A stretch of DNA of 45,375 nucleotides from a virus (IMGVR_UViG_3300002920_000062:134123-179497); one strand, 5' to 3'; counted from the stretch's first letter, positions 1 to 40,228 are shown. Notes: generated by a model from the sequence alone, not told the origin. Numbers and translations are program-made.

Positions 1-2
1 AC

Positions 3-386
3 CTAGACCGTGTAAGCCACTGTATTGTTAGTATGGCAATGGATGGTTCAAACGGTGTTGGTAAATTGCAAATACTTCCCACTCCTATGGGGCAGCTAGT
101 AACAACTATGCTTGAATCAGGGGTGAAATTGGGAGTATCTAGTCGTGGATCGGGTAACGTAAACGACTTTGATGGTAAAGTCAGTGATTTTGAAATTATC
201 ACTGTTGATATCGTAGCCCAGCCAAGTGCTCCTCAAGCTTATCCCAAAGCTATTTATGAAGGTATCATGAATATGAAATACGGACATAAAGTTTTGGAAA
301 TTGCAAAAGAAGTGCAAGGCAACACCAGAGTACAAAGATTCCTGGGTGAGGAAGTAAAGCGCCTTATCCGAGAACTAAAATTATAA
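3..386 (+). CDS. Prohead maturation protease (T4 gp21-like), 5' truncated by window
   Basis: Frame is open from the window start: LDRVSH...TPMG...LGVSSRGSG...DIVAQPSAP are gp21-family motifs; lies directly upstream of scaffold and capsid genes. Confidence 0.92.
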   Translation, partial: LDRVSHCIVSMAMDGSNGVGKLQILPTPMGQLVTTMLESGVKLGVSSRGSGNVNDFDGKVSDFEIITVDIVAQPSAPQAYPKAIYEGIMNMKYGHKVLEIAKEVQGNTRVQRFLGEEVKRLIRELKL

Positions 387-1540: not shown

Positions 1541-2737
1541 ATGTCAAAATTACTTACAGAAAGCCGTTGGGGAGAAACTAAGGGAGCCCTGCTTGAAGGC
1601 TTAACCGGAAATCGTCGTCAAACGATGGACGTCGTGTTAGAGAATACCAGAAGGCAACTTCTAAAGGAATCTACCGCGGGCACAACTACTTCTGGAAACA
1701 TTGCAACTCTAAACAGAGTTATTCTTCCAGTTATTCGTCGTGTTATGCCAACTGTTATTGCTAACGAATTAGTCGGTGTGCAACCAATGACCGGACCAGT
1801 CGGTCAGATTCACACTCTTCGTGTTCGTTATGCAAACAGCTTGAATGATACCTCTGCCGCAAATACTGACATAATTGCTGGTGAAGAGGCGCTATCCCCA
1901 TTCAAGATTGCCCAGGCATATTCACGTACACCATTTGGTACTGACAATGCTTCATCTTATACTGCTGCTGATACTGCAACACTTGAGGGTAACCCAGGTA
2001 AGCAGATTTCAGTACAGATTCTACGTCAGACTGTTGAAGCCAAGCAACGTAAGCTACAGGCACGTTGGACCTTCGAAGCTGCACAGGATGCGCAGTCTCA
2101 GCATGGTATTGACATTGAAGCAGAAATTATGGCTGCTTTGGCTCAGGAAATTACTGCTGAAATTGACCAGGAAATCTTGTTGTCACTTTCAACTCTAGCT
2201 TCAACTGAGTTCACATACAACCAAGCAACTGTTTCAGGTACTGCTACTTACGTTGGTGACGAACACGCTGCCCTAGCTGTTCTTATTAACAGAGTTGCAA
2301 ACTTGATTGCTCAGCGCACTCGTCGTGGTGCAGGTAACTGGGCTGTTGTATCCAACGCAACTCTAACTGTTCTACAGTCAGCGACCACTTCAGCGTTCGC
2401 AAGAACCACTGAAGGGACCTTTGAAGCTCCAACAAACACTAAGTTTGTTGGTACTCTAAATAATTCAATGCGCGTATTTGTAAACAGCTATGCTCCTGAT
2501 AGTCAGCCTGTATTGGTTGGTTATAAGGGTCCAAGCGAAACTGATGCGGCTGCGTTCTATTGCCCTTACATTCCGCTAATGAGTTCAGGTGTTGTTATTG
2601 ATCCTCAGACCTTTGAGCCAGTAACAAGCTTTATGACTCGGTATGGTTACGTTGAATTGACGAACACTGCTTCGTCATTTGGTAACGCAGCGGACTACGT
2701 CGGGGAAATAGCTGTTGCTAATTTATCATTCCAGTAA
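1541..2737 (+). CDS. Major capsid protein (T4 gp23-like)
   Basis: Motifs VIRRVMP, GVQPMTGPVGQIHTLR, QDAQSQHGIDIEAE, FYCPYIPL, FMTRYG; AGGAG RBS; terminator follows. Confidence 0.97.
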   Translation: MSKLLTESRWGETKGALLEGLTGNRRQTMDVVLENTRRQLLKESTAGTTTSGNIATLNRVILPVIRRVMPTVIANELVGVQPMTGPVGQIHTLRVRYANSLNDTSAANTDIIAGEEALSPFKIAQAYSRTPFGTDNASSYTAADTATLEGNPGKQISVQILRQTVEAKQRKLQARWTFEAAQDAQSQHGIDIEAEIMAALAQEITAEIDQEILLSLSTLASTEFTYNQATVSGTATYVGDEHAALAVLINRVANLIAQRTRRGAGNWAVVSNATLTVLQSATTSAFARTTEGTFEAPTNTKFVGTLNNSMRVFVNSYAPDSQPVLVGYKGPSETDAAAFYCPYIPLMSSGVVIDPQTFEPVTSFMTRYGYVELTNTASSFGNAADYVGEIAVANLSFQ

Positions 2738-34361: not shown

Positions 34362-36053
34362 ATGAATGAGTTAAAATCTATAATAACAAAATATTGCTAC
34401 AAAAAAAACGGGAGTGTAAATGGTCGGTGTAACAAGAAAATATGGTGGCAAAGTAGAGGCTTAGAAACATACTATCAGCAGATACTTGAAGTTACTGATT
34501 TTTTACCCGAAAACACTAAAATTAATATTCGTTTTTATCATATACTAAATGATATTTGGAATATACCAAAATGTGCTTATGTCAGTTGCGACAAAAATGT
34601 TGCATGGCACAAATCAACCAATCGTTATTCATTATATTGTTCTCGTAGATGCACCGCTCTAGCGAATATTAAAACAGGAAAAGAAAATTGCTTTTCAAAA
34701 CGCAAAACCAAAGAAAAAATAAAACAAACCCTTGTACGAAAATATGGTGTAGACAATTTTTCCAAGTCTCATGAATTTAGTGATAAAATCAAGAATTACT
34801 ATTCTTGTTTGTCCCAAGATGATAAAAAGTACATACAAAGCAAAAGAGAAAATACCAACTTGCAAAAATATGGTTATACTACTCCTTTACTAAGCAAAGA
34901 TGTTCAGGAAAAAATACAAAACACACTTCTGGAACGATACGGTGTAGATTCACCTTCAAAAAGCAAGATTATACAGGCTAAAAAAGCCAACACCAATCTA
35001 CAGAGATATGGTGTGCCCAACTATAATCAGCGCTATTTAGGAGAAGAAACTATCAATAATTTGTGTGACCGAGAATGGTTAGAAAAGAAAATGGCCCAAT
35101 CTTCCATCAAAGAAATAGCCACAGAACTAAATATTTCTTATTCGGCGTTGTGTTCTTATATTAGGAAAGCTGGGATAATACTAACTAACTATTCATATTT
35201 TGAAACTGAAGTTTATAATTATATCAAAGAAATACGCCCTGACATTGAGGTAACAAGAAGAGACAAGACCTTATTAAAAACATCTAAACAAGAAATTGAT
35301 TTGTATATTCCAGAACTAAAGTTAGCAATTGAATGTAACGGTATTTATTGGCACGGTGAAAATAAGGGAAAACACAAATACTACCACCTAGGTAAAACTG
35401 ACACCTGTTTACAAAATTCAGTTAGATTAATTCATATTTTTGAAAATGAATGGGCAGGTAAACAGGATATAGTGAAAAATCGCTTATCAGTTTTATTGGG
35501 AGAAAAAACAAAAATATACGGAAGAAACACTGTAGTTAAAAAAGTGACCAAAACTGAAGAGCGTCAGTTTCTCGATGCCAACCATCTGCAAGGGTATGTT
35601 CCTTCAGTAGTATGTTACGGTTTATATTACAATGATATATTAATCTCGTTAATTAGTTTTGGAAAGTCAAGGTTTAGTAAAAATATAGAATGGGAGCTTC
35701 TTCGTTACGCAGTCAAAGATACATATTGTGTTCTAGGAGGGGCCAAAAAACTTTTCTACTCGTTCATTAATGATTTTTCACCAAAATCAATTGTTTCCTA
35801 CTCTGATAGACGCTGGTTTACAGGTGAATTATACAAAGCCCTTGGTTTTATTTTTTCACATTATTCAAGTCCTAATTATTACTACGTTGAGCAGAACGGG
35901 GAATTATCTTCTAGGCTACGTTATCAAAAGCACAAACTAAGTAAAATTTTACCTAATTACAATCCAGAATTAACAGAATGGGAAAACATGCTATGTCATG
36001 GATATGACAGAATTTGGGATTGTGGCAATTCAGTATGGTTTTATTTCAAATGA
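34362..36053 (+). CDS. Homing-endonuclease-like protein, paralogue of 28396-30021
   Basis: YCSRRC; TLLERYG/TNLQRYG repeats; EIDLYIPELKLAIECNGIYWH; GYDRIWDCG. Confidence 0.8.
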   Translation: MNELKSIITKYCYKKNGSVNGRCNKKIWWQSRGLETYYQQILEVTDFLPENTKINIRFYHILNDIWNIPKCAYVSCDKNVAWHKSTNRYSLYCSRRCTALANIKTGKENCFSKRKTKEKIKQTLVRKYGVDNFSKSHEFSDKIKNYYSCLSQDDKKYIQSKRENTNLQKYGYTTPLLSKDVQEKIQNTLLERYGVDSPSKSKIIQAKKANTNLQRYGVPNYNQRYLGEETINNLCDREWLEKKMAQSSIKEIATELNISYSALCSYIRKAGIILTNYSYFETEVYNYIKEIRPDIEVTRRDKTLLKTSKQEIDLYIPELKLAIECNGIYWHGENKGKHKYYHLGKTDTCLQNSVRLIHIFENEWAGKQDIVKNRLSVLLGEKTKIYGRNTVVKKVTKTEERQFLDANHLQGYVPSVVCYGLYYNDILISLISFGKSRFSKNIEWELLRYAVKDTYCVLGGAKKLFYSFINDFSPKSIVSYSDRRWFTGELYKALGFIFSHYSSPNYYYVEQNGELSSRLRYQKHKLSKILPNYNPELTEWENMLCHGYDRIWDCGNSVWFYFK

Positions 36054-36080
36054 CTAAATATATCTGATGGATAAAATTTT

Positions 36081-36338
36081 ATGAGAAAAAAAACTCGGTC
36101 CTTGTTGGAAGAACTACAACACTTAAGTGATACCCGCGATATTAACCATATCATTGAAAATAGAGCATCCAATATTATTACTAGCGCCATCAATTTAATT
36201 GAGTTGATGGAAAAGCATTACCCTTCCGACAAAGTTTTGATTCTTGAAAAGAAGCTTTTAAACGCCATCAGAACAAAGGACCAAAGTAAATTTACTAGAA
36301 CTTTGAGGAAGAAAACCGGTAATGAAAATGACAGGTAG
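36081..36338 (+). CDS. Hypothetical protein
   Basis: 85-aa ORF after TAAATA (36055). Confidence 0.7.
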   Translation: MRKKTRSLLEELQHLSDTRDINHIIENRASNIITSAINLIELMEKHYPSDKVLILEKKLLNAIRTKDQSKFTRTLRKKTGNENDR

Positions 36339-37191
36339 TTTACTCAACGAAGGCGGTTCTTTGCCGGGAGTGGGGGCAATTCATATTAGTGAAATTGAAC
36401 CTACTCTTAGACCACTTGAAAAATTTTTAGGTATAGACTTAGTGAATAATATGCTCGGCAGCGCCGGCAAGAAAAAGTTCTCTGGCGATATCGATGTGGC
36501 AGTAGATTTAACCCAGGAACAAATACCAGAGTTCATAGAAAAATTAGAAAAATACCCGGGTATTTCTGACATTAAAAAATCATCTGTCATTATGTCTAAG
36601 GTAAAAATCAAAAACTTTGATCCTAGCAAAGAAACCGACAAAAAAAGAACAGGTTACGTTCAAGTAGATTTCATGCCAGGCGAAATAAACTGGATGAAAA
36701 CCTTCTACCATGCACCATATGAGAAAGATTCAAAGTATAAAGGAGTATATCGCAACCTACTATTATCTTCAATCGCAATGTTCTTAGACAGAAAAGAATC
36801 AAAAGAGATAATTCCTGACGGTAGACCAAAAGAAGTAGAGCGTTTCTTATGGAGCCCCACGGATGGTTTAGTGCGCATCGTACGAAGACCAACCCCAAAC
36901 AAAAAAGGCGACGGATACACAAAGGCAAATTCAAACGAGATTATAGGTGGACCATACAAGACTCCTGAAGAAATAGCTAAGGTACTGAAACTAGATAGTC
37001 CTGATGATTTGTATTCTTACGAAACATTAAAGAAGGCTATTGACAAGAATTATGAACCAGAATTAGTTAAAAAAATTTTAGCAGACTTTAAGGAAAACCC
37101 TATTGTCCAGCAATTTGGTGTCCCTACTGATTTAGTGTCAGAATCGTTCGGCAGCGAATGGTTCAGGGTTATAATGGATATGATAAAATGA
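36322..37191 (+). CDS. Pol-beta-superfamily nucleotidyltransferase-like protein
   Basis: LGSAGKKKFSGDIDVAV (hGS..DxD) and third acidic residue in VQVDF. Confidence 0.7.
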   Translation: MKMTGSLLNEGGSLPGVGAIHISEIEPTLRPLEKFLGIDLVNNMLGSAGKKKFSGDIDVAVDLTQEQIPEFIEKLEKYPGISDIKKSSVIMSKVKIKNFDPSKETDKKRTGYVQVDFMPGEINWMKTFYHAPYEKDSKYKGVYRNLLLSSIAMFLDRKESKEIIPDGRPKEVERFLWSPTDGLVRIVRRPTPNKKGDGYTKANSNEIIGGPYKTPEEIAKVLKLDSPDDLYSYETLKKAIDKNYEPELVKKILADFKENPIVQQFGVPTDLVSESFGSEWFRVIMDMIK

Positions 37192-37931
37192 AAATAAAAG
37201 AGCTCTTAGAAGCAGAGGTTAAGCCCTACACTAAAGAAGAAATAGCCAAAGAAAAGGCTATCTCTATTTTAGAAAAGTCAATATTCTTTGAAAATAACAA
37301 GAGCCGCCCATTATGGCGAGGCACAAGATCTAATTTAGCAGAAGTTATCCTTATAGATCCATCTGATGGCATAAGAAAATCAGAAAATACTGACAATTAC
37401 TATACATTATTGATGGATAATTCGCCTTATTACCAAGGCTGGCCAAAAAGAAGCAAGTCATTGATATGCACTACTAACCCTTTTACAGCAACTTACTATG
37501 AAGGCCGAATATATGCTCTTATACCATTGAATGGCTCAAAGATAGGAGTGTGCCCCGAAGAAGACATATGGAAAACAAGTGTAGAAATCTTAAATAGTGA
37601 ATCTTTAGTAACGTTCGGCCAAATCTCCCTAATGATGTATAATTTAGGATTTTCTGATAAGTCATATCAATCTTTATTACACTGGTCAACAACTAACAAA
37701 TTTATAAGACGACTGGATGAACGTTTCCCAGAACACAATTTAGGAAATAAGAACTTCATAGAATACATGCATGAACAAATGTCTCCTGAAAAAACCGGAA
37801 TGAAACTTGAAACGGCAGAAAGTATGGATGTGACAAACTATCCTGATAATGAGTGCTGGACAGATGGCAAGTGTCTCTTAGTGAGGAAAGATATATATAA
37901 GCAATTATTCGGAGTTACTTTCTCGTCATGA
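37188..37931 (+). CDS. Putative ADP-ribosyltransferase-like protein (R-S-E), paralogue 1
   Basis: RPLWRG...SLICTT...A..Y...NECW; N-terminus MKIKELLEAE. Confidence 0.55.
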   Translation: MKIKELLEAEVKPYTKEEIAKEKAISILEKSIFFENNKSRPLWRGTRSNLAEVILIDPSDGIRKSENTDNYYTLLMDNSPYYQGWPKRSKSLICTTNPFTATYYEGRIYALIPLNGSKIGVCPEEDIWKTSVEILNSESLVTFGQISLMMYNLGFSDKSYQSLLHWSTTNKFIRRLDERFPEHNLGNKNFIEYMHEQMSPEKTGMKLETAESMDVTNYPDNECWTDGKCLLVRKDIYKQLFGVTFSS

Positions 37932-38680
37932 AAATGAAAGAACTCTTAGAAGCAAAAATTATACCTCAGGGTGTTGAACCGGTTAATGTAGAAGTCTTAA
38001 AAGACTTACTATATAGCCAGTGTTCAGAGTTCATGGCAAACAACGCCAAAAGACCATTGTTCCGGGGTACACAGAAAAAATATGAACCCATAGTGATTAT
38101 TGATCCAACAGTTGGGTTACGAAAATCAAGAGTCATAAAAAATCATTACACATTATTGATGGACAATTCCCCTTATTACCAAGGCTGGCCAAAAAGAAGC
38201 AAGTCAGTGGTATGCTCTACTAGTTATTCGTATGCTGCCGATTTCGCTAAATTTGGTACGAGGGTTATTGTTCCATTTAATGGAAGTAAAATTGGTATCA
38301 CTCCTTATGCTGATATTTGGGCCACGCCAGTTGATTTATCTAAAGTTGCCCCCGAACTCAAATATTTTAATCATATTAGTTATCTATTAGAATATTTTAA
38401 AGTACCTGATAATAGTTATGAAGTCATGCTTGAATATATGCAAACACCAGACTTTCATTATAACTGGAAAGAGCGTTTTCCTAACATTGATTTAAATGAT
38501 TTTGATTTAATAGGTTATCTACACAAGGTTATGTCTCCAGAAAAAACTGGAATGCAACTATCCAATACTGAAAACTTCAAGCGCGCATTGTACCTAAATA
38601 AAGAATGTTGGGTGGGCGGTAAGTGCTTATCAATAAAGCCTAGCGTATATGAACAAATTGTAGGAACATTTATAAAATGA
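37928..38680 (+). CDS. Putative ADP-ribosyltransferase-like protein (R-S-E), paralogue 2
   Basis: RPLFRG...SVVCSTSYSYAADF...KECW; N-terminus MKMKELLEAK. Confidence 0.55.
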   Translation: MKMKELLEAKIIPQGVEPVNVEVLKDLLYSQCSEFMANNAKRPLFRGTQKKYEPIVIIDPTVGLRKSRVIKNHYTLLMDNSPYYQGWPKRSKSVVCSTSYSYAADFAKFGTRVIVPFNGSKIGITPYADIWATPVDLSKVAPELKYFNHISYLLEYFKVPDNSYEVMLEYMQTPDFHYNWKERFPNIDLNDFDLIGYLHKVMSPEKTGMQLSNTENFKRALYLNKECWVGGKCLSIKPSVYEQIVGTFIK

Positions 38681-39759
38681 AAATTCAAGAGCTACTCAAA
38701 GAAAGCATTTTGTTAGAAAGCACTCATAGAACTCCTCACCCCGAAGATTCAGTATTCAGTGGTTTAGAAGCAGTACAAAGCATGGTTGATTCACTATATT
38801 GGGTAATAGAAAATCCACGAACAATCACTATCAAGTTTGATGGTTTTCCTGCGTTAATATTTGGATATAATAGTAAGAAAGAATTTACTATATCAGATAA
38901 GTACATGTTTGACAAGGGAGAAGAATATTTAGGCACCAGCCCAAAATTTTGGGAAGAATATGACAGAAGTCGCGGCAAAGATAGGGGCGAACTATATCAA
39001 AAGCTAGCTAATATCTGGGAAGGATTGAAAATAGCAGTCGGCAGCAATACGGGCTTTTATTGGGGAGACCTGCTATGGGGTTTCCCTCTCAATGAGCAAG
39101 ATAATATGTTTATTTTTAAGCCAAACACTGTGACGTATTCAGTTCCTGTAAACAGCAAGCTTGGTAAAAAGATTGCCGGAACTAAAGGCGGTATCGTAGT
39201 TCACCAGTATTTTAGAGCCATTGGCGCAACACCCGTGCAATGGAATGGTCAGGGATTGCAGGGTAATAGCCAAGTTGCTATTTTGACACCGAGTGCTGAT
39301 ATCTCATTTTCTCTGTCAAGACCGACCAAAGAGATTGCCCAGGTTAATAGAGCATTGCAGGATAATTCTGGACTTGATAAATTCTTGTCAGGCATGGCAG
39401 AAGTGGCTAAGAATGCTATCTTGAAGTATCTTAATCATTATGTAACTAGGCAAACCAATCAAAAGCTTTTGGACTGGTTGCCAACTCAGTTGAGCGGCAA
39501 GCAAGTTACCTTTTTACTTGGTAATGATGGATACTTGATAAAGAACCAAGAACAACTACAAGCAGCCATAAACCTTTATTTTGCTATAGCTAACTTGAAG
39601 AATAATCTTGTTGATCAATTAGAACAGCAAGTAAAAGGTATACAACAAACTATTAACGGTAAACCAGGAGGGGAAGGATTTGTCTTCAATACTCCGAACG
39701 GTCTGGTTAAACTAGTTAATAGAAGCATGTTTGGTGTGGCCCATTTTGCTAAAAAATAA
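38677..39759 (+). CDS. Ligase-like covalent nucleotidyltransferase-fold protein (DUF6267-like)
   Basis: TIKFDG (motif I KxDG), WGDLL, GEGFV (motif IV), LVKLVNR (motif V). Confidence 0.6.
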   Translation: MKIQELLKESILLESTHRTPHPEDSVFSGLEAVQSMVDSLYWVIENPRTITIKFDGFPALIFGYNSKKEFTISDKYMFDKGEEYLGTSPKFWEEYDRSRGKDRGELYQKLANIWEGLKIAVGSNTGFYWGDLLWGFPLNEQDNMFIFKPNTVTYSVPVNSKLGKKIAGTKGGIVVHQYFRAIGATPVQWNGQGLQGNSQVAILTPSADISFSLSRPTKEIAQVNRALQDNSGLDKFLSGMAEVAKNAILKYLNHYVTRQTNQKLLDWLPTQLSGKQVTFLLGNDGYLIKNQEQLQAAINLYFAIANLKNNLVDQLEQQVKGIQQTINGKPGGEGFVFNTPNGLVKLVNRSMFGVAHFAKK

Positions 39760-39787: not shown

Positions 39788-39795
39788 TATAAATA
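39788..39795 (+). promoter_or_regulatory. T4-like late promoter TATAAATA
   Basis: Exact T4 late consensus upstream of a small gene that has its own terminator. Confidence 0.65.
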
Positions 39796-39838
39796 ACAGC
39801 ATGAGCGTTGTCTCAATTTAACATAAGGAAACACTAAC

Positions 39839-40228
39839 ATGGCAGAATTTACAAGAGTAAACGGTGACTTCAAGCCAGTAATGAACTATGATGCACCCGA
39901 GTACATCAACACTGGTGTTAATGCTGTTACTTCAGCATCTACTGTACAGCCCCAAGGTCCAAAGCTTGAGTTCTTCACTGTAACTTTAACCGGAACTGGT
40001 ACAACTGGCGCGCAAGTAAAGGCAGCTATTGATACCATTCAGCAGCTTGGAATTGTATACTTATATGAGTTTACCTCTTCTACTAATGATACACTGGCAG
40101 TAGCTATGTATCCGGCTGGTGCTTGGGGTGATGTAACTGCAACAACAGCTGGTTCACTAGACGAGGCTTTGACTACTGCACTTGGCGAAGCAGTAACAAT
40201 CACTGCATCCGCAACTTTCACTAACTAA
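39839..40228 (+). CDS. Small putative virion protein
   Basis: T/A-rich, TAAGGA RBS, bracketed by late promoter and terminator. Confidence 0.65.
   Translation: MAEFTRVNGDFKPVMNYDAPEYINTGVNAVTSASTVQPQGPKLEFFTVTLTGTGTTGAQVKAAIDTIQQLGIVYLYEFTSSTNDTLAVAMYPAGAWGDVTATTAGSLDEALTTALGEAVTITASATFTN

Follow-up and report, generated by a model that had tools for sequence, protein, structure and literature searches.

What binds together five adjacent phage genes whose products fall into unrelated protein families and nevertheless share the same kind of N-terminal sequence? The genes, here called o1 to o5, lie on the plus strand at positions 36081-39759 of IMGVR_UViG_3300002920_000062:134123-179497, a stretch of 45,375 nucleotides (hereafter the window) that forms the final 45 kb of a 179,497-bp viral contig from a large uncultured T4-type marine phage. 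The preferred reading, to which we assign a probability of roughly 55%, is that they form a cargo locus of a T4-core jumbo-type phage, whose enzymes would be packed in the head and delivered with the DNA.

Gene layout and N-terminal leaders

The five genes are co-directional and translationally coupled. o1 overlaps o2 by 17 nt, and each of the three junctions o2/o3, o3/o4 and o4/o5 is a 4-nt ATGA overlap. An initial annotation of this DNA had described four overlapping genes downstream of a TAAATA motif, and the N-termini that it quoted are all present as given: MKMTGSLLNEGG for o2, MKIKELLEAE for o3, MKMKELLEAK for o4 and MKIQELLKESILLES for o5. It had overlooked a fifth gene, o1, whose product begins MRKKTRSLLEE. 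The longest frame of o3 would start at 37158; this start was rejected and 37188 was taken as the real one, because nearly all relatives begin at MK(I/F), the exception being one near-identical relative (87% identity).

All five products begin with leaders of the type M-K/R-x-x-E-L-L-x-E, ending in L-x-E prohead-protease motifs. Judged by sequence motif, the candidate protease sites are SLLE-10 in o1, LNE-10 in o2, LLE-8 in both o3 and o4, and LKE-9 and LLE-14 in o5. The leaders resemble MKTYQEFIAE, the capsid-targeting sequence that T4's internal proteins IPII and IPIII carry (read in NC_000866), and the same pattern matches both of these proteins. MKTYQEFIAE is the experimentally defined capsid-targeting sequence of T4 (PMC8442874, PMC9026906, PMC3012670), and the T4 protease cuts Alt at ITE-6 and LTE-619 (PMC5694885). 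Because each starts with a T4-like head-loading tag of this kind, the o2-o5 products are probably packed in the particle.

Of the 179 crude gene starts in the 179-kb contig, 8 match M[KR]x(1-3)[DE] with two hydrophobic residues after it, and the same pattern occurs at 0.33% of internal methionines. Shuffling of the N-termini (2000 shuffles) gave a mean of 1.0 pattern starts and a maximum of 6, against the 8 observed; the leader exceeds chance. It is common to three unrelated families or folds at the locus, namely the nucleotidyltransferase, the ADP-ribosyltransferase (ART) fold and the ligase fold. In AlphaFold2 models it is disordered, with a predicted local distance difference test score (pLDDT) below 50 for residues 1-7 of o3 and residues 1-18 of o5.

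Comparison with relatives suggests that the leader is a separable module delimited by protease motifs. Unfused relatives of o2 include 28 that begin MGG or MSG and 23 in which an MK-type leader runs up to hydrophobic-x-E directly before GG, so that the MGG start of the leaderless proteins coincides with the predicted cut position. In fusion proteins, 35 of the 37 o2 domains that lie internally have hydrophobic-x-E before them; in 9/9 internal domains of DUF6267, the Pfam family of o5, such a site is found 4-10 residues ahead of the HPED motif. The o5 leader is kept in relatives (strict pattern in 92 of 120), and the leader consensus differs between phages yet crosses families within a phage, as seen in phage Atu_ph07.

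The contig also encodes the machinery on which such leaders would act. In its T4-type head module, the portal contains an intein and is accompanied by a Peptidase_S77 prohead protease, a Gp23 capsid protein and a gp22-like scaffold. The phage has a protease of the gp21 type as well as a gp23 capsid protein whose propeptide is predicted to be cleavable. The capsid protein N-terminus reads MSKLLTES...GALLEGL...QLLKES and contains propeptide sites at LTE-7, LLE-19 and LKE-43, confirming the L-x-E sites that had been noted in its leader.

The late-promoter-like motif CTAAATAT, whose promoter function is predicted from its sequence, lies 19 nt upstream of o1 and includes the TAAATA at 36055-36060. 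TAAATA alone is weak evidence, as it occurs in five copies in 4.4 kb. NATAAATA or CTAAATAT is present no more than 50 nt upstream in four of the six leader-gene units, against a chance expectation of 1.5-3.5% per 50-nt window. Motifs of the NATAAATA type also stand upstream of the portal gene and other structural head genes, and the CTAAATAT variant recurs upstream of the leader gene p428. This placement fits late expression of the leader genes, and is not proof of it.

Other genes with leaders of this kind were also seen (Table 1). A fusion of a GNAT domain and a nucleotidyltransferase, 465 residues long, has the leader MKILDILSE; its second half is a second type of o2-like nucleotidyltransferase, and its domain junction reads VIE/GG. 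A third ART-fold paralogue has the leader MRIHEILTE, with GATAAATA about 10 nt before the start codon. The leaders of the paralogues p418 (418 residues, MRFYEFLVE) and p428 (428 residues, MRAKEFLLE) and of p120 (120 residues, MRASEFINE) are the closest of all to T4 MKTYQEFIAE, and no Pfam family match was obtained for any of these three proteins. A Zeta-toxin-type P-loop kinase of 220 residues starts MLIKEIYEPITE/G, and is possibly a further cargo enzyme and the 5' kinase of a repair pathway.

Table 1 Coordinates of the features discussed. Positions are those of the window unless another record is named; a slash within a motif marks the predicted cut.
Feature	Position	Strand	Remarks
o1, small basic protein, 85 aa	36081..36338	+	SLLE-10 near N-terminus; phrog_11854 'virion structural protein', E 1.2e-12
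o2, Pol-beta/PolX-like nucleotidyltransferase (predicted), 289 aa	36322..37191 (alternative start 36328)	+	GS...DxD...D signature
o2 leader MKMTGSLLNE	36322..36351	+	predicted cut LNE/GG
o3, ART-fold protein (predicted), 247 aa	37188..37931	+	leader MKIKELLE; AlphaFold2 pLDDT 92
o4, o3 paralogue (43% identity), 250 aa	37928..38680	+	leader MKMKELLE; same PHROG 12810 as o3
o5, DUF6267, ligase/capping-type nucleotidyltransferase fold (predicted), 360 aa	38677..39759	+	Pfam DUF6267, E 2.6e-31
o5 leader MKIQELLKESILLE	38677..38718	+	predicted cuts LKE-9 and LLE-14
Late-promoter-like motif CTAAATAT	36054..36061	+	read from the sequence
gp21-type prohead protease, 3' gene part	1..386 (whole gene L005:9856-10509)	+	Pfam Peptidase_S77, E 6.1e-24
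gp23-type major capsid protein	1541..2737	+	Pfam Gp23, E 5.5e-96, profile match from residue 54
GNAT-nucleotidyltransferase fusion	G000:C1:1189-2586 (L003:1189-2586)	-	
Third ART-fold paralogue	G000:C1:12785-13540 (L003)	+	
p418, p428 and p120	G000:C1:63860-68217 (L004)	-	
Zeta-toxin-type P-loop kinase	L090:1441-2103 (G000:C1:25977-26639)		
Homing-endonuclease-like gene	34362-36053		563 residues
Acidic protein	39788-40228		129 residues, pI 4.1

Predicted enzymes of the locus

The nucleotidyltransferase, ART-like and ligase-like identities proposed in the initial annotation hold at the level of motif and fold, structure prediction and fold search having been run on o3 and o5. Sequence searches of the Protein Data Bank, with single sequences and with profiles, gave no significant match for the families of o2, o3/o4 or o5.

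In the o2 family (46 sequences), residues G46, K50, D56, D58, Q114, D116 and R144 are invariant or nearly so. They include the arrangement hG[GS], then D-x-[DE] 9-13 residues on, plus a third carboxylate, represented in o2 by G46-S47, D56-x-D58 and D116. These motifs support the assignment of o2 as a Pol-beta/PolX-like nucleotidyltransferase. Of the sub-threshold matches, that to the Pol lambda active site was the best, and Pfam DNA_pol_B_palm, Polbeta and AbiEii were matched weakly in some members; a protein atlas led to NTP_transf_2, which is to be read as a lead only. Membership of the RlaP family was considered and rejected, as Pfam RlaP matched neither o2 (E up to 0.1) nor the 46 aligned members (E up to 1).

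Members of the o5 family (25 sequences) share an invariant K53-F-D55-G56 (motif I, KxDG), E333-G334 and K345, together with the invariant C-terminal motifs GEGFVF (IV) and VKLV (V). The AlphaFold2 model of o5 has a pLDDT of 86.5, and ATP-dependent ligases, of RNA or of DNA, occupy all of the first 16 ranks of its structural matches (Z 5.8-7.1, 159-202 residues aligned, root mean square deviation 4.0-4.5). The predicted fold and the motifs support o5 as a covalent lysine nucleotidyltransferase of the kind found in ligases. No OB domain is present in the model, which ends directly after motif V and has a helical insert at residues 217-318. A literature search found no paper on DUF6267.

The genes for these two proteins are closely linked in relatives. 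o2 adjoins and overlaps o5 in 30 related viral contigs, and the two are fused in at least nine representatives, in three of them behind a HIGH-type nucleotidyltransferase; fused relatives form domain chains of up to 1802 residues. In a distant clade it is the second type of o2-like nucleotidyltransferase, the relative of the second half of the GNAT fusion, that lies directly upstream of DUF6267. Prediction of an o2+o5 complex gave a score of 0.09 against a mark of 0.32, which speaks neither for nor against pairing. The initial annotation had suggested host takeover, RNA repair or counter-defence as the role of the enzymes; the linkage of o2 and o5 points most to nucleic-acid end repair. As a pair they would trim or extend broken nucleic-acid ends and then seal them, the likeliest substrate being host or phage tRNA cut by abortive-infection nucleases, and the alternative being repair of incoming DNA.

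That alternative may be put more generally: a packaged PolX-like gap filler and ligase could mend nicks, gaps and restriction or CRISPR breaks in DNA, or join its ends. The Pol lambda match of o2 and the contact of some members with DNA_pol_B_palm would agree with this, as would the fold search with o5, in which DNA ligases scored as high as RNA ligases (Z within 1). Nearly all DNA ligases, however, carry an OB domain, which o5 lacks, whereas RNA ligases carry other appendages. The contig, moreover, already has a canonical DNA ligase, separate from o5, and the links to a HIGH-type nucleotidyltransferase, a P-loop kinase and ART-fold proteins, together with 16 tRNA genes, fit an RNA-repair theme (PMC7824862). 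DNA repair as the function of the pair is regarded as rather improbable. The tRNA genes are grouped at 13.7-40.1 kb of the contig, and a tmRNA-like gene was seen at 79.4 kb. Further genes include a split ribonucleotide reductase and a gp41-type helicase. Pfam RNA_ligase and CTP_transf_like found no match on the contig, which is estimated to represent only about half of the genome, so this is not evidence of absence.

o3 and o4 are assigned to the ART fold with moderate confidence, on the basis of the o3 model. In an exhaustive structural comparison of o3 with 48,161 chains, the nine best matches were all ART-fold proteins (Z 4.1-6.7), ranked as BC2332 (6.7), Arr (6.0), cholix toxin (4.9) and diphtheria toxin (4.8), the remainder of the nine being a PE-like toxin, an ADP-ribose-bound entry, an anti-CRISPR protein, tankyrase and AvrPphF ORF2. 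Language-model features of o3 placed it nearest, among named clusters, to DUF2441, the BC2332 family (score 0.83, a lead only). DUF2441 is a member of the Pfam ART clan (PMC7955679), and the BC2332 site is diphtheria-toxin-like (PMC3024214). In the o3 family (36 sequences), R44 is present in 32/36 and S91 and E222 are invariant, giving an aromatic-R-G / S-x-S / E pattern. By their placement along the chain, [YWF]-R44-G45 falls on strand 42-46, S89-x-S91 precedes strand 92-95, and E222 is located at strand 222-225; R63, S65, N70, Y72, T73, R88 and D126 are also invariant in the family. An identity of o3 as Tpt1/KptA was set aside. Tpt1 uses an R-H-R-R tetrad; it matched o3 only at Z 3.2-4.5, and no invariant histidine is present in the o3 family.

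Conservation of the module and the case for packaging

The gene order helicase, o1, one variable leader-bearing gene, o2, o5 and an acidic protein of 124-129 residues is found in the 30 related viral contigs. The ART-fold genes, of which the window has two copies, are present in one of these contigs (L009) and absent from the other 29 of the 30 closest. The conserved core is o1...o2-o5, to which the ART-fold genes have been added as an accessory, lineage-specific insertion; the locus is thus not the single cassette of four equal members that the initial annotation had proposed. A nucleotide search with the cassette found nothing in cultured phages.

Two neighbours of the module were seen in the window. 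Between the helicase gene and o1 lies a homing-endonuclease-like gene, which looks like an insertion because o1 follows the helicase gene directly in 29 of the 30 contigs most closely related; L009 has a similar endonuclease-like open reading frame at the equivalent position. Downstream, a perfect TATAAATA at 39788 is followed by the acidic protein, which is conserved downstream of DUF6267 in related contigs.

Protein relatives in cultured phages bear on packaging. Homologues of o1 in RaK2, K64-1 and PA5oct-like phages are called 'virion structural protein' in some records, and in one relative (P0338) o1 is fused to an o2 domain. PA5oct encodes in one region the homologues of o1 and o2 and a protein with a KIDG motif; the label 'structural protein, ESI-MS/MS' is given there to the o2 homologue and to many of its neighbours. 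The twelve ART-fold paralogues of Atu_ph07 (gp053-gp062) form a tandem array at 35105-53884 (L089) and start MRWEQLTE or a close variant of it; one copy is fused to a Zeta-toxin-type kinase domain. The neighbours of this array are a GNAT protein (start MRLFQLLE), a leaderless nucleotidyltransferase (gp065) and gp066, which has a KLDG motif, and the array genes and their neighbours are annotated as hypothetical. gp066 and PA5oct 0228 have a KxDG motif near the N-terminus and no MK-type leader. In cyanophages, DUF6267 follows the gp41 helicase and MazG genes, beside a 'cytitidyltransferase'.

For the phage studied here, we infer that the proteins are packaged, cleaved after Glu and injected. In the late phase of infection, the leaders would bind the scaffolding core, so that the enzymes are built into the prohead; the prohead protease would clip the leaders after Glu, and the mature enzymes would stay with the DNA, leave the head and enter the next host. 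The capsid-targeting role that had been claimed for the leaders was strengthened by their separability, the hydrophobic-x-E joints of fusions, the gp21-type protease, the phage-specific consensus and the PA5oct homologue, and was weakened by the leaderless DUF6267 proteins of cyanophages.

Several further observations weigh against this reading. Leaderless homologues exist: the cyanophage DUF6267 proteins start MAKNTHLEHLED... and have no leader, gp065 of Atu_ph07 has none, and the PA5oct o2 homologue, 0231, is leaderless and is found in virions. A tag is therefore not strictly needed in PA5oct, since the nucleotidyltransferase detected in its virions lacks one. The DUF6267 homologue of S-PM2 is annotated only as hypothetical, while a nearby gene of that record is labelled a virion structural protein. 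Hydrophobic-x-E before GG could in part be the conserved first strand of the domain and not a cut site, and CTAAATAT is a 7-of-8 variant of the late-promoter motif. As regards the enzymes, the structural Z scores of o3 and o5 are only middling (6-7), and Foldseek searches of the Protein Data Bank with either model returned nothing at E 0.001. Pfam ART-clan models had no match in the 36 o3-family members at E up to 1, Pfam RNA_ligase and other ligase models had none to o5, which matches DUF6267 instead, and no feature discriminates between an RNA and a DNA substrate.

Some of these observations would be expected of an ordinary intracellular repair or modification operon that is not packaged, in which the N-termini would be alike because of a favoured context for translation start (ATGAAAAT...) or a recombination-prone shared sequence, and would not act in targeting. 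The cyanophage proteins lack a leader yet occupy the same position after the gp41 helicase, gp065 and 0231 are leaderless, gp066 and 0228 are without an MK-type leader, and at the DNA level o3, o4 and o5 begin with 21 nt that are very similar. A start context or recombination would, however, leave several features of the leader to be explained: its protease motif sits where the N-terminus of leaderless relatives begins and also marks internal domain junctions, and its consensus varies by phage while being common to different families within one phage. The enrichment above shuffled controls and the detection of one homologue in virions by mass spectrometry likewise argue against an unpackaged operon, which is regarded as rather improbable.

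Alternatively, the leaders might load into the prohead proteins that are not injected but have a part in assembly or a function within the capsid, for example as core components or on the packaged DNA. In T4, many proteins of the core that have the same sites function in assembly (gp22, gp67 and gp68; PMC5694885), and o1 is small and basic (mature pI 9.7), like a DNA-binding internal protein. Against such a role, catalytic residues are conserved in three enzyme families, whose nucleoside triphosphates and nicotinamide adenine dinucleotide (NAD+) are unlikely to be available in a filled capsid, and the ART-fold genes vary in copy number and are absent from most of the closest contigs, unlike essential assembly parts. 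A purely in-capsid function is considered very improbable.

Under the preferred reading of head packing and delivery, the ART-fold proteins would be exchangeable effectors using NAD+ on a host protein, like T4 Alt, or on a nucleic-acid end. A broader proposal, advanced only tentatively and in our view some way from being likely, is that several T4-core jumbo lineages use a portable capsid-address tag and prohead-protease joints to pre-load the head with a nucleic-acid repair and modification kit that travels with the DNA (P-loop kinase, Pol-beta nucleotidyltransferase, DUF6267 ligase, ART-fold and GNAT proteins), which would counter tRNA-cleaving or NAD-linked abortive-infection defences before phage gene expression, and that DUF6267 is a new RNA ligase family. 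Should the tags function as they do in T4, the cargo delivered from the head would be much more varied than that of T4 itself, with its Alt and few internal proteins, and injected proteins of uncultured phages could be listed by the rule of a leader plus a hydrophobic-x-E joint. There would also be a first clue to the function of DUF6267 and of a widespread ART-fold family with twelve copies in Atu_ph07. Pre-loaded repair enzymes would amount to counter-defence ahead of transcription, with a bearing on how large phages escape tRNA-targeting and NAD-depleting immunity.

Comparison with known systems

The closest parallel is with the internal proteins IPI-III and Alt of T4. Shared features are an N-terminal leader, short and of the form M-K-x-x-x-E-F/L-hydrophobic, with L/I-x-E at its end; a protease of the gp21 type, a gp22-like scaffold and a gp23 with the same sites; the presence of a predicted ART-fold enzyme among the cargo, as with Alt; and variable cargo genes at one locus. 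T4 Alt modifies host RNA polymerase. In contrast, the mature proteins described here have no sequence similarity to the internal proteins or to Alt, and the cargo would consist mostly of nucleotidyltransferase, ligase-fold, GNAT and P-loop kinase proteins. The host, an uncultured marine bacterium, is also different. The phage itself is probably of jumbo size, because the CheckV completeness of the contig is only about 52%, which suggests a genome of roughly 350 kb.

Among proteins with the ART fold, DUF2441/BC2332 and Arr are the best structural matches of o3, from which o3 differs in having no Pfam ART-clan match. The diphtheria group has an H-Y-E pattern, whereas o3 has the aromatic-R-G / S-x-S / E pattern together with extra invariant residues.

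Phage RNA repair in which a Pol-beta nucleotidyltransferase acts with RNA ligases has been described (PMC7824862, section 3.4.9), and the o2-o5 pair resembles the proposed RlaP-RNA ligase partnership (PMC7824862, PMC9503650) without being a member of it by profile. As with RlaP and Rnl1/Rnl2 (PMC7824862), in large phages the genes of a Pol-beta-fold enzyme and an ATP-dependent ligase-fold enzyme appear to be coupled, and the predicted logic is that of restoring lost nucleotides and then sealing. The differences are that o2 falls outside Pfam RlaP, that o5 belongs to DUF6267 and not to RNA_ligase, and that capsid-type leaders are present here. The polyvalent or ejected multi-enzyme proteins of other phages (PMC5512222, PMC9503650) similarly bring ART, nucleotidyltransferase and kinase domains into the cell with the DNA, as would be the case here; those are MuF- or portal-linked giants, whereas the enzymes of the present phage and its relatives are encoded by separate genes with their own leaders or as fusions jointed by protease motifs.

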